NCBI GenBank assembly: GCA_965153355.1 | Contig: OZ231126.1 | Span: 29,016,001-29,080,000 of the forward strand | From: Flaccisagitta enflata | Taxonomy: Eukaryota | DNA length: 64,000 nt | Reading direction: 5' to 3' | Part shown: one piece after another, positions 9,001-27,000 of the stretch | Layout of the letters: every line of letters starts with the position of its first letter | How positions within the stretch are numbered: position 1 is the stretch's first letter | Translations under genes and position numbers: made by a program | Notes under the pieces: model-generated | Database searches by the model: none | Seen by the model: only the letters and a program-made list of their open reading frames with translations | Told to the model about the DNA's origin: nothing

Positions 9001-12000
9001 TTACTTCTTTTTCTTTTTTTTTCTTTACATCTTTTCTGTTACATCTTTACAGCTTTACATCTAGTCTATATTTTGTGATCCAATCACCCCAACCGACCAA
9101 ATCAGCCTAATACCCTAGAGTGAGAAACATGCATAACTTTGCGATTTTTCAACAAATTTGCTGGAAACTTGGTAGGAAAACTCTAAACAGAAGGACTCCA
9201 CACATATGTAGGATTTAGACATTTGAGCACGCTTTTACTTTTTGGGTGTTTTTAAACTTTCTGGGCACATAGCATCTTTCCAGATGCCATTATACATCAT
9301 TCTAAGTCATTCTAAGTCATTTCAAGTCATTTTTTGACATTTTCAGTCAGCTTAAGCAATTCATGTCCCGTTCGTGACTAGGCGTTGGCCTTGTTTTTAG
9401 GCACGGACATGCAACTACTCCTTGCCATGTTGGTCGGTAGGATGGTAGGTTGGTAGGTCAGTATGTTGGTCCGTCTATCCGTCACATTTTTGTATTCTGA
9501 GCGGTTTTCACATAACTGCTCCTGCCCAACTGTCCACAACTGGATTGCCGTGTATCCGGCCTTGTTTACTGATTAGCTTGAAACTTGGTGTAGTAACTGA
9601 AAATTGAAGAATTGAGTGTGGCAGAGCGTAAGTGATCCATGGAGGAGTGATACAAAAATCTCATTTGCATATTGCCGATGAGCATTCAGCGGCTTATAAG
9701 TTTTTGTGTTATACATTTATTAGTTTGTTATCTAGTTACCCTTACTCGTCTTGTTGTCTAGTTTTCATAGCTATATCGTTTTATGGTTTTATTGATGATG
9801 AACTAGTTAAATATCCATTTCTTGGTCTCATCTCTGTGTGGCTTGATAGTATTTAGTAGTTTTAATCTATCCAAAGGAAAACTTAGCCACTCAGCTTGGG
9901 TCCACCAAGTTCAGGGACACAGTCACTTGTTGACCTCCCACTCCTTAGCCTCAAGTATCATCATCAATAGTCAGAGTATTCAGTGTGTATTCTCTTAATA
10001 AAGGCAACAACTGTATTGTAGTAAATTACATAGGTTCTTCTTCTTTCACTCAGATGTGAATTGCCTTAGAGGCTAACTTGGCGTACTTACACTAAAAACA
10101 TTCCATGTGGGCAAAGGAAACCCAGTCTCCTTTGAGGGATAGTTCGTTCATGAACAAGGATAAAGAACAAGAATAAGGACAAGGAACAAGGACAAGGAAC
10201 AAGGTTAGTAAGTAGTCATGAATTGGTGACATGGTGGATATAATGGTCATATTAATGGCAATAGCCTCCTCCCTCATGGATCGACTAGGTATACCCTGCC
10301 CCATTTGGTGCATCGCAGGATTGCACTCAGTGTGCATGCACCTGAACAGAGGGCCGCTAAGCGTGACTGGTTTCATAGCCTGTAATGATTCTCTTCACCA
10401 CCGATGCTGTTAATTTACTCATGCCACTGAACCTAAGTTATTTTATGCGAGCTTTTGTTTCTAATCCTCAGCCAACGCGGTTTGGTAAGAACCATTTCGT
10501 TATTTCGGTTTAAGCTATCGTCGGAGCCAAGAGATTTCCCCCTCAAGAATTTCGATTTTCATTTCCCGCGATAAATGGAAAAAAGCTCAAGGTAATGACA
10601 GTTATCTCCACCGTTTCCCCGGTAATCTTGGTTAAGCTCTTCTTCGGGAATCCTGTGGCAGGGGAGAAGTTGATAAAAATTCATACCCATGTGTGAATGG
10701 CCACCATCTTTCTTTATTCTGAACCTCTGAGTACTTGTACAGTCGGATCTCAGGGGAGACTTTTCTCATTCAAACTTTGCAGATCTGGCATTGGACGTTG
10801 CCAGTCTCGTCGTCCGTTTTCGTAATCGTCGTCGTGCCTACCTTATTGGCCGGATTCCTGGCGGGGGTTGCGCGGCGAAATGCGCGCGTATTCGCTTCTG
10901 CTGCATGGGTGAAGTCTTTGCCTTGCTGGGGGATGCCACACATTCACAAGGACGTCCAAAAAACTGATACAATACAACGCCCCGGTGTCTTTATCTGCGA
11001 GCCTGCCCACCGTCATCGTCCAGTCTAATTATCTTGTTGTACTTCGTAAGACTAGTGATTTCCCGTGCAACACATCATGGGGTGTGCAGACTGCAAAAGT
11101 GAGGACGAGATTCTTTTCTTAGATAATTACCGAGTGCTGCTCCGTTTATCGTCGGTTTAATTAAAACACGTGTGACAGATTCTCAGCAATTCGATTCATT
11201 TAATTACAACACCACTGCCAAGTCTCCTATTCCTTTTTTTTTTGCGGTAAAATTTGGGAAGGCTCCGTTCTTTTGCCCCGTTGGTTACGACATTTTATTC
11301 ATCTAGTACCGTTGCAACTTTAATTCATTACCGCCAAGTCAGCTCTAGGGACTCATTTGTTAATTCCTCCGTATCCCTGGTTGTTGCCAATAATCGCCGG
11401 TAACGCAACTGAATTCAAGAGTGCCTTCATATTTCAGTTGATACTTGATTCCAAACTCAAATTCAATCATGGAGTTGATCATTAACACGCTTATTCTCGT
11501 CGTTCTTGTGGCCATCCTATTCACGTTGAGGGACATTCTGCATTATTCACGTCTTACCGTCTTTAAATTGGCCACCAAAGAACCAGTCCCCTCTACTCCA
11601 AAGGGACCAAAAGCGCGCAAAGTGCTTAGATTTTGAGTACAAAGTTCGATTTTGTAACCAAAAAGAGCCTAAGCTCCGAGAATTCGCGGATTATAAATTA
11701 ATAGCAATTAGCTTCCATATTTTAGCAATCATTTTCCGTTGCCTTGTAAGGACACACTATCTTACCATTTTACACACGATGGTAAATGATTTTACATGAT
11801 TCTGCTTTTATACAAATCACTCCTCCTTGGTTAGCAGGGCCGCGCGCCGCTTGGCCGCACTTAGTCCTCTGACTTTCAGTCTCTGCTCTAAAAATCCGCG
11901 TTTTTTTTCTCTCTCTATCCTCTTCACTCTTTTACGTTTTAAAAGTTTGAAATAAATCTTAGGTTTTGCAAAATCGTTTTTTTTTTCAATCATCTTTTTA

Positions 12001-24000: not shown

Positions 24001-27000
24001 TGGATACGACTGCCTCTCTTATGGCAGTTGCAACTTCAAAGAAGATTGAGATTTTTTCTCTTCTCGAATTCGGCGGTCCCGCAATTGTCGTTGTCGATAC
24101 GGAGATTGAGCAATATCGCCAAATCGTGCTCCACGGCGACTTCCTCTTCCTGCGTCCTCCGGTTGATGAGGGGCGCCATCATTTCGATGTCCGCAACTGG
24201 GTCGACCGCTCGGACGTCGACTCTGTCGTCCCACGTTATTTTCCGGCCATGAGACGTCCATTGAAGAAATCGGAAAATTATCTCGCGACGTACATAGTCG
24301 AATTTGACGCTCTGGTGGCTTATTCGTTGAACCGCCATGGCGACTTTGATCCCACCCCAACGAATATCTCCTATGCGCAAAGCGCCTGCCGGCAAATCTC
24401 CTTCGTTTACGACTACAACGTTGCCGGCGCCTATCTTCTGCTCCTCATCGACCGCGATTGTTCTTTCGTGGTTGAACGCCATCACATCCCTTCTGCGCAA
24501 ATCACCGAGAAATTCCTGGTCGCTTCACCGTCGGATCTGCTTGAGCCACGTTTGGCTTATCCACACGTCCTCATTGCTCAGAAGCCCTTGTCTGAGAATG
24601 CCGGTTACGCGGATGAGAGTCTTCGCTCCTACGGCGTCAGCATCATCATGGACGACCCTGGCCGGAGGTTCGGAGACATTCGTATTCCGCGCCGTTTTCC
24701 GCGTATCAGGGCGAACATGCTCCACCATGCGACTTCCTCCGATGTTCTCTTCCACGCGTTCGTCAACTACGGTGACCCGGGTACGCACTTCGTCTTTGTA
24801 GGTGAGAGAAGACTCCGTTTTTGCGAATTTGTCGACTTCGTTATTCCGACCTTCTGTTTTGAACCATTTGGACTTTCCATCATCTACGCCCGTGGTAGCG
24901 ACGTTACGCTCGTCAGGTTTTACGATCATCTTGATTCCTTTTCTCTGTCTCAGTAATTATCTTTGATTTTTTTTGTCGCGGACATGCGGCTCTATTTGAG
25001 GCTCTGTCCGTCCGCTGGTCTGTAATTTTCGAGATGAAAGGTTTAGACGAGGACATGGATTTCTGCCACTGCCCACCCGTCTGCAACAACTGTCCCTATT
25101 GTTTATTTCCTTCTCTTTACAAAGAAATTGATGACGTTTTCTCATTTTCTGATTGTTTTCTTCTTTTGCGGATTTTTACGAGTTTGATGTTATCTTTTTC
25201 AAGTTGATCATGTTACTGTTATTCTTTTTCCTGTTTGCGTTCGCTTTTGCGTCTATTGATAATCTTCACGCTCTCTATGGCCTTAGTTGTATACATGTTT
25301 GCTCGTTTGGTTTTTTTTTTCGTCCTCGCTCTTTCGTCTTTTTTTTTTTCTTTTTTCTTCTTGGTTTTGTCGCCTCGGTCCCTGTGGCCACGATTACGGC
25401 ATTTCCCTTCCTAGTTTTTTTTTTTCTTTCTTTTCTTGTTAGCTTATGATGCGTTCTTTTGGCTTTTCTTTCTCCTCTCTGTTGGTCGCCACTGCCCCTG
25501 TGGTTGTGTTTACGGCTGGCTAGCTTCCTTTTTCGTTTTTTTTTTCTTGTTTTTGCGACGAGGACGTCTTTATTTCCGGAAAGCCAACGTATATGTGGCA
25601 GAGCGTAAGTGATCCATGGAGGAGTGATACAAAAATCTCATTTGCATATTGCCGATGAGCATTCAGCGGCTTATAAGTTTTTGTGTTATACATTTATTAG
25701 TTTGTTATCTAGTTACCCTTACTCGTCTTGTTGTCTAGTTTTCATAGCTATATCGTTTTATGGTTTTATTGATGATGAACTAGTTAAATATCCATTTCTT
25801 GGTCTCATCTCTGTGTGGCTTGATAGTATTTAGTAGTTTTAATCTATCCAAAGGAAAACTTAGCCACTCAGCTTGGGTCCACCAAGTTCAGGGACACAGT
25901 CACTTGTTGACCTCCCACTCCTTAGCCTCAAGTATCATCATCAATAGTCAGAGTATTCAGTGTGTATTCTCTTAATAAAGGCAACAACTGTATTGTAGTA
26001 AATTACATAGGTTCTTCTTCTTTCACTCAGATGTGAATTGCCTTAGAGGCTAACTTGGCGTACTTACACTAAAAACATTCCATGTGGGCAAAGGAAACCC
26101 AGTCTCCTTTGAGGGATAGTTCGTTCATGAACAAGGATAAAGAACAAGAATAAGGACAAGGAACAAGGACAAGGAACAAGGTTAGTAAGTAGTCATGAAT
26201 TGGTGACATGGTGGATATAATGGTCATATTAATGGCAATAGCCTCCTCCCTCATGGATCGACTAGGTATACCCTGCCCCATGAGCATATATAATTGATTA
26301 TAGCAAGCTATCCTGACAACATATTAAAAATATTAAAGATATCAAAAAACGCTTAAACAGGTAAAAAAAACTATAAATACATTTACAAAAGACTTTAAAG
26401 ACTTACATGCAACTCCCTAGACAAAAGCTTTGTCACTCGTAATATCATCATGGAAAAAAAATGTTTTATTTTTTTTTTTGATGAAAGTGATAGTATTTTT
26501 AAAAGATGACAAAAAAGCAAGAAAAGGGCAAAAAATGACAAAAATGACAAAAATGGCAAAAATCATAAAAATGGCAAAAAATGACAAAAAAGACAAAAAA
26601 TGACAAAAAATGACAAAAAATGACAAGAAATGACAAAAAATGAAAAAAATGATAATTTTTATATTTATTATGTGATTTTACAATATTACAAAATGATAAA
26701 ACCTTCAGGTGATTTTTGTCCAATTTTGAGTTGCTCTCAGAACATAGTGCATAGGGAGCTGCTGCAACCCGTATCTATAGTTTCCGCGGGAATTGACCAA
26801 TTACACAGGGATCATGACCCGAATTGAACCAGTGCTAGTTAGTAGGGACGGAAGTGGAAGTGGGACCAGCTACGTGGGAACCAACACAACCACATTCTCC
26901 TTCACCTTCGAGTTGGACGTGTTTGTTTCTTTCCACGCCGTGATCATACGCGCCCGGTCCCGGTAAGTCTGGTTCTGCCACCGTTTTCCCGAATCGTTTA

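Follow-up and report, generated by a model that had tools for sequence, protein, structure and literature searches.

The window analysed here, a 64,000-nucleotide stretch of DNA from a marine eukaryote, contains a 16.66-kb Ty3/Gypsy LTR retrotransposon that is part of a multi-copy family and was inserted very recently. Downstream of pol this element carries two genes, ORF3 and ORF4, which are shared across the element family and were not picked up by this copy alone. Both are very probably accessory genes maintained by the element, and they may help it to handle its host. As the best overall explanation, held at about even confidence, we propose that the family has two accessory genes of its own that serve in counter-defence in a broad sense.

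The element spans 16,664 bp (~16.7 kb), and its two LTRs, which start with TG and end with CA, are identical to one another at every position, indicating that this copy is very young. The flanking sequences of the two LTRs are unrelated to each other, and the same four letters border the element on both sides (Table 1). The size, identical LTRs, and target-site duplication described in the first-pass annotation were hence borne out. Moreover, an empty-site joint (9612 to 26281), which skips 16,668 bases and has four letters that fit both sides, was seen in all three DNA runs (on four contigs in X1, two in X2, and one in X3). The string just past the 5' LTR is a candidate tRNA primer-binding site.

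The gag gene is read in two different frames, with the frame change located near 12815–12830, and the element is therefore not wholly intact. A CCHC knuckle was not found in the Q/P-rich tail of the second part of gag. Next to the gag stop, gag and pol overlap by 10 nt at a run of T residues. Motifs in pol include DTG in PR (14179–14187), FLDD in RT (at 15589), and the HHCC and core of the integrase; Pfam matches were to RVT_1 (2.7e-25), RT_RNaseH_2 (5.4e-26), rve (7.9e-16), and Integrase_H2C2 (5.9e-13); pol ends in a low-complexity tail of ~350 aa.

Table 1. Features of the retrotransposon and its insertion site (positions in the window).
Feature	Positions	Strand	Details
Ty3/Gypsy LTR retrotransposon	9617–26280		
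Target-site duplication, left copy	9613–9616	.	TGAG; empty-site joint with 4 shared letters
5' LTR	9617–10303	+	687 bp, TG...CA; AATAAA at LTR position 381
Long leader	10304–12479	+	2.2 kb; no ORF ≥110 aa
Primer-binding-site-like string	10306–10323	+	Begins TGG, 2 nt past LTR
gag, first part	12480–12956	+	Weak Retrotrans_gag match, E 0.005, below threshold
gag, second part	12815–14044	+	Other frame; capsid-like continuation, then Q/P-rich tail
pol	14035–18942	+	-1 relative to gag; PR, RT, RNase H, integrase
ORF3, two-module exonuclease-fold protein	19948–23049	+	1033 aa, same strand as pol
ORF3 N-terminal DEDDy-type 3'-5' exonuclease domain (predicted)	20140–20847	+	~residues 65–300, PF01612
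ORF3 linker, predicted disordered	20848–21579	+	pLDDT <50 over 272–546
ORF3 all-helical domain	21580–22362	+	~residues 545–805, pLDDT mostly >90
ORF3 C-terminal exonuclease-like fold without DEDD (predicted)	22450–23007	+	~residues 835–1020; model, Atlas, alignments
Stable hairpin, ORF3–ORF4 spacer	23310–23371	+	MFE -31.1 kcal/mol, z -4.24
ORF4	23649–24956	+	435 aa; N-terminal MG...S motif, F-box-like helices, beta-rich remainder
ORF4 F-box-like helices	23673–23798		~residues 9–50
3' LTR	25594–26280	+	Identical to 5' LTR, 687/687
Target-site duplication, right copy	26281–26284	.	TGAG; empty-site joint with 4 shared letters

Both genes after pol are uninterrupted and in the sense orientation, and, as first noticed, they lack env features: the N-terminus is not hydrophobic in either protein, and no segment reaches TM grade (highest Kyte-Doolittle 19-residue means of 1.41 in ORF3 and 1.58 in ORF4). 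Contigs at 90%–99% identity covered 30 of 30 bins of the examined stretch in each of X1, X2, and X3, and one X3 contig (22963–23773) joins the end of ORF3 to the start of ORF4. Among the observations that the first-pass annotation had named as speaking against its reading were ORFs confined to this copy or near-identical to host genes; both genes are present in other, diverged copies, and a near-identical host gene was not found. ORF3 and ORF4 are not flanked by inverted repeats of ≥20 nt or by long direct repeats, and the only three direct-repeat families around them are short and either T-rich or due to chance. The RSCU of each gene correlates with that of pol (0.65 for both), and GC3 is 0.52 in ORF3, 0.58 in ORF4, and 0.51 in pol.

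At the family level, the N-terminal domain of ORF3 is predicted from sequence to be a DEDDy-type 3'-5' exonuclease. Scanned alone against PF01612 it scored 23.6 bits, exactly the cut-off, while the homolog P0012 reached 37.4 bits (3e-9) and 4 of 10 N-domain sequences of the family matched at E ≤0.01. The motif residues are D102, E104, E179, Y271, and D275; the ExoI DxE is present in 7/8 family sequences covering the site and the ExoIII YxxxD in 4/5. Together with the structural matches described below, the domain match and motifs uphold the exonuclease label at the family level and suggest that the domain is catalytic. The ORF3 family is small and has no name; HMMER returned 34 hits to it at E ≤1e-3 (13 at E ≤1e-30), and both modules are kept in P0012 (835 aa, 34% identity) and P0167 (1008 aa, 29%). 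In P0043 and P0167 the N-domain motifs are lost and the C-terminal module is kept, showing that catalysis is not universally retained in this family.

The best-conserved part of ORF3 is its non-catalytic C-terminal half (the helical domain and the exonuclease-like fold), for which the AF2 model has pLDDT >90. In this model, both exonuclease-fold domains have an identical b1-b2-b3-a-b4-a-b5-a order, and the C-terminal module is accordingly predicted to adopt an exonuclease fold, with no link to exonucleases at the sequence level: a relevant Pfam family was matched in none of 13 members, a profile search of the PDB with this module found nothing, and hhalign gave a probability of 0.2 for the N-domain against the C-domain. 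Conserved residues are C823, H830, D940, H941, E964, C967, R969, and H986. In the Atlas, a language-model look-alike search whose hits are leads, residues 560–1033 gave a first hit at 0.95 (199/256 shared features), PF01612 clusters made up 24 of 30 hits, and the neighbours include a cluster with Mut7-C in 30% of its members.

Foldseek comparison of the whole ORF3 model with the PDB yielded 45 matches at E ≤0.001, headed by Nibbler EXO domains (TM 0.63–0.67, a ranking that does not tell which ORF3 domain is responsible) and followed by RNase D, Rrp6, EXD2, EXD1, and WRN. RNase D, Rrp6, and WRN fall within about two orders of E-value, and the Nibbler ranking is therefore not specific. The suggested link to the Mut-7/Nibbler/EXD1 group is backed to some extent by the Nibbler EXO and EXD1 matches and the Mut7-C cluster, but the fold similarity behind it is generic. 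Nibbler is described as consisting of an NTD, built from HEAT-like repeats, and an EXO domain of the DEDDy type (PMC11347159). As small-RNA 3'-5' exoribonucleases, Nibbler, MUT-7, and EXD3 (PDB 7jw6, 7jw2) provide the best structural match and resemble the C-terminal half of ORF3 in that an EXO fold comes after a helical domain. In ORF3, however, the EXO-like fold after the helical domain is without DEDDy, the catalytic-looking domain is separate and N-terminal, and neither MUT7-C nor significant sequence similarity was found; ORF3 does not belong to this family. EXD1 (5fis/5fiq), Maelstrom, and Egalitarian (9rw6), which in the source material available are RNA-binding exonuclease folds without nuclease residues, offer a further resemblance as a lead only. 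In the C-terminal fold of ORF3, the DEDD is likewise replaced by conserved Cys, His, Glu, Asp, and Arg, although their order differs from the EHHCHC given for Maelstrom there, and Pfam returned neither Maelstrom nor any other family for the C-terminal module.

Eleven relatives of ORF4 were found, one (P0001) at 96%–98% identity and the others (P0002–P0011) at about 77%–81%. Ten of the 11 are open and align over their whole length, and the other diverges at its C-terminus, a count of intact relatives that is biased because the search covered only called proteins of 239–762 aa. The MG...S N-terminus is invariant in all 12 sequences of the ORF4 family and is presumably myristoylation-like, as in membrane-targeted Gag-like proteins. 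The F-box label initially given to ORF4 is favoured by the Atlas, where F-box clusters accounted for 30/30 hits (first hit 0.95, 197/256 features), but the recognition value of 1902 does not reach the mark of 2300, and on the tool's own terms this high score is then weak evidence. Pfam scores, on the other hand, were below threshold: F-box-like reached 14.7 bits against a cut-off of 24.3 (E 0.027; 0.0057 in the best family member), and at E ≤1 F-box-like was matched in 2/12 family sequences and F-box in 1/12. The secondary structure from AF2 begins with three short helices, in a model with an unusable pLDDT of 29, and a PDB sequence search with ORF4 gave no match. On balance, we lean slightly toward ORF4 being a true F-box protein.

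In the explanation we favour, ORF3 and ORF4 occupy the position where errantiviruses carry env. ORF3 would bind the 3' ends of single-stranded RNA or DNA and its N-domain would trim them; its C-terminal module has lost the DEDD residues and has a layout like the NTD and EXO of Nibbler/MUT-7. ORF4, as a probable F-box-type adaptor, could bind a protein and deliver it to the SCF ubiquitin ligase of the host. Jointly, the two may work in the manner of retroviral accessory factors, countering host factors or RNAs by which the element is held in check. The frame-split gag, the loss of N-domain motifs in P0043 and P0167, the lack of reads on the element in the RNA run described below, and the neutrality reported for the rotifer ORFs weigh against this explanation. 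We regard a host-directed role as possible, at slightly less than an even chance, and one aimed specifically at small-RNA silencing as unlikely. The polerovirus F-box protein P0 and HIV Vpu and Vif are accessory proteins that hijack cullin-RING ligases. ORF4 is similarly a small accessory gene, located between pol and the 3' end, whose possible F-box would recruit SCF; this F-box is below family thresholds, and Skp1 binding is putative.

The architecture is only partly new, since the bdelloid rotifer LTR elements Juno and Vesta are in print with a DEDDy ORF3 in place of env (PMC5408684). Of the novelty first suggested for the exonuclease and F-box pair, what stands is the pairing of ORF3 with ORF4, to which the two-module organization of ORF3 can be added. 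As described by Rodriguez, Kenefick & Arkhipova (2017), the Ty3/Gypsy-like elements Juno and Vesta share an RNase D-like DEDDy ORF downstream of pol without TM or coiled-coil features, and their acidic motif is DEED, with E179 as the ExoII acid here (PMC5408684). In contrast, their hosts are bdelloid rotifers, and, compared by description only, the 1033-aa ORF3 of this marine organism has a second, non-catalytic module and is followed by a fourth gene.

Alternatively, the ORF3 exonuclease could act on the element's own nucleic acids and not against the host, by trimming the 3' ends of genomic RNA or cDNA, by removing mispaired or primer-derived ends, or through a proofreading-like activity that makes a long genome tolerable, with ORF4 serving particle assembly or trafficking. 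The N-domain retains acidic residues and falls in PF01612, which includes RNase D, WRN, and the proofreading nucleases of polymerase A type, the element is long, and the invariant N-terminus of ORF4 also fits. In addition, the LTR elements and the unrelated Penelope-like Athena/Terminons of rotifers gained DEDDy ORFs independently, which the authors read as pointing to a shared transposition step (PMC5408684, PMC6431247). However, two relatives keep the C-terminal module without catalytic motifs, the non-catalytic half of ORF3 is the best conserved, and the F-box-like helices of ORF4 are left without a role; we consider such a function somewhat unlikely.

More improbable is a dedicated anti-silencing cassette, in which ORF3 would trim or sequester the 3' ends of piRNAs or siRNAs, or be a catalytically dead Nibbler/MUT-7 decoy, and ORF4 would drive SCF degradation of an Argonaute/PIWI-pathway protein. 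The Nibbler and EXD1 matches, the Nibbler-like layout of the DEDD-free C-terminal half, the Mut7-C cluster, and the F-box-like look of ORF4 are consistent with it. Drosophila telomeric retrotransposons likewise carry silencing-pathway or F-box-related sequence, having taken up pieces of piwi, aub, and the F-box gene CG12520, although these are host-gene fragments in non-LTR elements (PMC13534243), whereas ORF3 and ORF4 are complete, conserved, and without a detectable host parent. Against such a cassette, the fold similarity of ORF3 is of a kind common to RNase D-type nucleases, the F-box call is tentative, and MUT7-C, PAZ/PIWI-binding, and other pathway-specific features were looked for and none was found.

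It is very unlikely that the element merely carries ORF3 and ORF4 along without benefit, as host genes that it transduced or as remnants of such genes, intact only because the family is young. The identical LTRs would suit this, as would one polyA RNA run with the same organism label, in which none of 12.16 million records (~6% of the run) fell within the element interior, and the rotifer DEDDy ORFs are reported neither to depart clearly from neutrality nor to confer an advantage in copy number (PMC5408684). Yet ORF4 is open at 81% amino-acid identity, whereas only 3.9% of 2000 simulated neutral runs (substitutions alone) were stop-free at that distance, the ORF3 architecture persists at 29%–34% identity, codon usage is like that of pol, and no host-gene-like relative was found. 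Lastly, an Egalitarian-like adaptor, in which an inactive ORF3 module binds element RNA and couples it to transport towards the germline, as Egalitarian does with localising mRNAs, would suit a C-terminal fold that is most conserved yet without catalytic residues, but its structural match (Egalitarian-BicD with the I-factor localisation signal) stands far down the ranking and has a poor TM-score (rank 45, E 9.5e-4, TM 0.30); we rate it as exceedingly improbable.

Oversized retroelements with extra ORFs also include Ogre, Burro, with ubiquitination- and apoptosis-related domains, and the Terminons, with DEDDy ORFs; at 16.7 kb, this element is smaller than Burro (>30 kb) and lies near the lower limit of the size range of Ogre (16–25 kb) (PMC6431247). 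Unlike Ogre and Burro as described there, it owes its size to the 2.2-kb leader, the long pol tail, and two separate ORFs, and not to a giant polyprotein or long LTRs. The spacer between these ORFs is predicted to form a stable hairpin, for which an Rfam search gave no match (Table 1).

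The 16,664-bp insertion is a real, very young and large Ty3/Gypsy element that carries two family-conserved accessory genes, ORF3 and ORF4, downstream of pol. A direct repeat starts at window positions 9617 and 25594, and its two copies agree at 687/687 LTR bases, open with TG and close with CA, while the outer flanks are unrelated to each other. The tetranucleotide TGAG at 9613-9616 recurs at 26281-26284 as a target-site duplication of 4 bp. Contigs from three DNA sequencing runs (X1, X2 and the marine metagenome run X3) were aligned to window positions 8500-27500. An empty-target joint (9612 to 26281, skipping 16,668 bases, with four letters shared by both sides) was found in four contigs from X1, two from X2 and one from X3, although short-period satellites of very high copy number make up the flanks, so that the empty form may represent another copy of the flanking repeat rather than an allele. 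The joint fixes the insertion ends and the 4-bp duplication independently of the assembly, and the first-pass description of identical LTRs with a target-site duplication is borne out. No second copy of the element occurs within the 64-kb window. A 138-bp segment at 6514-6651 shares 73% identity with LTR positions 43-180 and may be a related LTR remnant. The features read along the element are listed below.

Features of the element, with positions in the window
Feature	Position or size	Strand	Description
Primer-binding-like string, TGG start	2 nt past 5' LTR	+	sequence read
Leader	2.2 kb	+	no long ORF
gag	start 12480; frame change ~12815-12830	+	weak Retrotrans_gag match
pol	opens 14035	+	-1 frame relative to gag, 10-nt overlap at T-run beside gag stop
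ORF3	19948-23049, 1033 aa	+	ORF after pol
ORF4	23649-24956, 435 aa	+	ORF after ORF3

Pol has the domain order PR-RT-RNase H-IN that is typical of Ty3/Gypsy, with strong Pfam scores (including RT_RNaseH_2 and Integrase_H2C2), a PR DTG motif at 14179, an RT FLDD motif, an integrase HHCC motif and a low-complexity tail after the integrase. Its closest relatives are unnamed contig proteins (38-39% identity), and the closest with a name is a hypothetical protein from a fish (36%). A number of more distant relatives of pol, encoded on marine and other contigs, have a macro domain, SET, PHD, FLYWCH, SCAN or RNA 2'-phosphotransferase fused to pol; in this branch of the Ty3/Gypsy tree, accessory modules seem to be frequent. 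Gag lies in two frames, with the capsid-like continuation in the second of them; it matches Retrotrans_gag at 17.5 bits (cut-off, 24.1), and its terminal Q/P-rich tail has no CCHC knuckle. Either gag is interrupted in this copy or the assembly contains an indel at about 12815-12830. Related contigs are gapped near this frame change (X2 record 10, X3 record 18), and the copy is otherwise intact-looking, with zero divergence. Judging from the sequence, the overlap between gag and pol would be compatible with -1 frameshifting. Scans for tRNAs and Rfam families across the element and the window gave no match.

ORF3 and ORF4 resemble pol in GC3 and synonymous codon use (RSCU correlation, 0.65 each), and the intergenic spacers are AT-rich. 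The N-termini of both ORFs are hydrophilic, their KD19 mean never reaches 1.6, and no env-type Pfam family was matched. With neither a signal-peptide-like start nor a TM-grade segment, neither ORF is env, as had been claimed from the sequence. An origin of the pair in a nested transposon was considered and rejected, as no inverted repeat of at least 20 nt and no long direct repeat brackets the two genes; direct repeats around them belong to short T-rich or chance families only. The spacer between ORF3 and ORF4 contains a hairpin (23310-23371, + strand; MFE, -31.1 kcal/mol; z, -4.24) whose stability was reached by 0 of 200 shuffles and for which Rfam returned no match. In the bin around it, k-mer depth is 3-5x that of the adjacent bins, and contig breaks occur at 23318 and 23363; the hairpin could be a small repeat, or it could be an RNA signal that other elements share.

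Every bin of the element is covered by contigs of 90-99% identity in X1, X2 and X3, and one contig bridges the end of ORF3 and the start of ORF4. Hence, the two genes belong to a multi-copy family, and the case that the first-pass annotation had regarded as damaging to its proposal, namely their presence in this copy alone, does not apply. A search for ORF4 relatives, limited to called proteins of similar length, recovered two clusters. P0001, which has an 8-residue gap, forms the first at 96-98% identity, and P0002-P0011 form the second at 77-81%. The match runs from end to end in 10 of the 11 relatives, the exception being P0005, which is divergent at its C-terminal end, and two variant positions in the DNA contigs are the same as differences between P0001 and ORF4. 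When neutral substitution was simulated to 81% amino acid identity, 3.9% of 2000 runs remained free of stops, which gives modest support for constraint on ORF4. For ORF3, a word-index protein search found no match, and neither ORF3 nor alignment A1 recovered a relative from JGI metagenome contigs or viral contigs. An exhaustive HMMER search with ORF3 returned 34 proteins at E ≤1e-3 (28 of these reach E ≤1e-10, and 13 reach E ≤1e-30), all of them nameless proteins of assembled contigs and mostly fragments. Both halves of ORF3 are kept in two long relatives: P0012, of 835 aa, is 34% identical to it, and P0167, of 1008 aa, 29%. The 12.16 million records examined from X7, a polyA RNA run with the same organism label, amount to about 6% of that run; none fell on the element interior, and the reads that were placed lay on low-complexity repeats outside it; this sample therefore gave no sign of element expression.

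The DEDDy exonuclease label proposed for ORF3 is borne out, at family level, for its N-terminal domain. This domain alone matches PF01612 at 23.6 bits, which is exactly the gathering cut-off (whole ORF3, 19.4 bits), and the homologs P0012 (37.4 bits) and P0038 (24.1 bits) score above it; PF01612 is detected at E ≤0.01 in 4 of 10 N-domain sequences. The ExoI residues D102-x-E104 occur in seven of the eight sequences that cover the site, and the ExoIII residues Y271-x3-D275 in four of five aligned sequences. The ExoII acid is E179 in ORF3 and aspartate in P0012, P0020, P0027 and P0038, and the exonuclease residues are lost in P0043 and P0167. A PDB sequence search with ORF3 gave no match, and an N-domain profile gave matches at E 0.42 and 0.83 only.

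The C-terminal half of ORF3 (545-1033) is the region matched by most of the HMMER hits, and AlphaFold2 modeled it mostly at pLDDT >90, with an all-helical part (545-805) followed by a domain (835-1020) of the order b1-b2-b3-a-b4-a-b5-a, an order that the modeled N-domain shares. Comparison of the whole ORF3 model with the PDB by Foldseek yielded 45 matches at E ≤0.001, led by the EXO domains of Drosophila and Aedes Nibbler (E, 2.8e-6 to 7.7e-6; target TM, 0.63-0.67, in an output silent on which part of ORF3 was aligned) and followed by RNase D, Rrp6, EXD2, EXD1, WRN and RICE1. Among viral models, giant-virus and phage 3'-5' exonucleases matched. Atlas, a language-model look-alike search, placed residues 560-1033 with PF01612 clusters in 24 of 30 matches (first match, 0.95, with 199/256 features shared), and a lower match was to a cluster with Mut7-C in 30% of its members. 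No sequence-level link between the C-terminal fold and exonucleases emerged from a PDB profile search, from Pfam searches of family members or from hhalign of the N- against the C-domain. The C-terminal fold does not conserve the DEDD positions; invariant or nearly so in it are C823, H830, D940, H941, E964, C967, R969 and H986 (about 22414-22905 in the window). This residue set points to a possible metal site, or to an active site that has been switched, comparable to what has been proposed for the Maelstrom domain.

Together, the domain evidence describes ORF3 as a catalytic-looking DEDDy domain, a disordered linker and a helical/inactive-EXO module. In the predicted structure, the C-terminal module is laid out like the NTD and EXO of Nibbler (PMC11347159). 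Nibbler, MUT-7 and EXD3 combine helical NTD repeats with a competent DEDDy EXO domain, whereas ORF3 has a helical part and an EXO-like fold without conserved DEDD residues and without a sequence match. Moreover, most Nibbler/MUT-7/EXD3 members have MUT7-C, and ORF3 has no PF01927 match.

The F-box label for ORF4 fared less well, and the evidence for it is thin. The Pfam score for F-box-like is 14.7 bits, below the cut-off of 24.3, and across the 12 family members, F-box-like was detected at E ≤1 in two (best, 0.0057) and F-box in one (PF00646/PF12937). In its favor, all 30 Atlas matches are F-box clusters (with a recognition value below the tool's reliability mark), and the AlphaFold2 model built from 12 sequences, which is unusable in other respects (pLDDT, 29), places three short helices near the N-terminus (15-22, 25-34 and 36-42; model pLDDT <50). 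No PDB sequence matched ORF4, and a profile gave a chance match only (E, 0.52). All 12 ORF4 sequences start with MGIEIS, which we take to fit a myristoylation pattern at the motif level.

Related gene content has been reported in other elements. According to a study of rotifer LTR families (Rodriguez et al. 2017, PMC5408684), Juno and Vesta have an RNase D-like DEDDy ORF3 in the env position, so that a Gypsy-type element with such an ORF at this site is already known. The same study describes a change of DEDD to DEED in these ORFs, which the Penelope-like Athena/Terminon elements also carry, and states that the function of the ORFs is unknown and that they do not clearly deviate from neutrality. 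E179 as the ExoII acid of ORF3 corresponds to this DEED variant. Giant elements are reviewed by Arkhipova & Yushenova (2019, PMC6431247), who cover Ogre, Terminons and Burro, the last with domains related to ubiquitination and apoptosis. A looser parallel is the capture of piwi, aub and F-box gene fragments by Drosophila telomeric elements (PMC13534243). Among the papers listed in a search of part of the literature (main texts, outside Repbase, Dfam and GyDB), none described an LTR retrotransposon that carries an F-box ORF, and neither the Nibbler-like inactive second module of ORF3, nor a conserved F-box-like fourth gene, nor the combination of both was found in print. Novelty is thus partial: a DEDDy ORF in place of env was known before, and new within that search are the two-module form of ORF3 and its pairing with ORF4. 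The element extends the rotifer observation to another host and in a more elaborate form.

LTR retrotransposons are usually thought to consist of gag, pol and at most env, and host-acting accessory genes are a hallmark of complex retroviruses. Here, a family-conserved pair at the env position combines an exonuclease-fold protein bearing a Nibbler-like inactive module with a possible SCF adaptor, and the two are very probably accessory genes maintained by the element. The analysis shows the anatomy of the element, the conservation of its two ORFs across the family, the exonuclease fold and its motifs; what lies beyond these we infer. A host-directed role for both has somewhat less than an even chance on our analysis: like the accessory proteins of retroviruses, ORF3 would bind or trim 3' ends, and ORF4 would serve as an SCF adaptor. 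That the ORF3 nuclease has a replicative role is rather unlikely; were this correct, it would bear on reverse-transcription errors and end processing in very long retroelements. Within the host-directed role, an action specifically against small RNAs, the version that the first-pass annotation had put forward, is improbable. Slightly less probable still is the full two-gene counter-defence against small-RNA silencing. In it, the conserved, catalytically dead Nibbler/MUT-7-like half of ORF3 would mimic the host trimmer and capture either the 3' ends of pre-piRNAs or siRNAs or the trimmer's partners, the N-terminal nuclease would destroy what is captured, and a membrane-anchored F-box ORF4 would deliver a protein of the PIWI/Argonaute pathway for proteasomal degradation. 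If true, it would be the first silencing suppressor protein of such a kind to be encoded by a retrotransposon, and the pair is a concrete candidate for counter-defence that a transposon mounts with proteins. That ORF3 and ORF4 are passive cargo is very improbable, and an Egalitarian-like RNA-transport role is scarcely credible.

The satellite flanks (9134-9616 and 26281-26885) are of extremely high copy, with a k-mer depth of 1e5-1e6 in the organism's DNA runs; a 10-bp TCATTCTAAG unit lies at 9297-9331 and a AAAAAATGAC array at 26501-26652. A tandem array with a period of 9-12 bp occupies 8001-8249, and low-complexity (GA)n-type tracts (36054-36951 and 51062-52884) produce long, spurious Arg/Glu-rich ORFs. 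The only recognizable host gene in the window is represented by a CFAP58-like exon at 43474-43908 (- strand), which matches the central coiled coil PF21771 (E, 1e-57). Downstream of it, on the same strand, is a second coiled-coil exon-like ORF (42445-42702).
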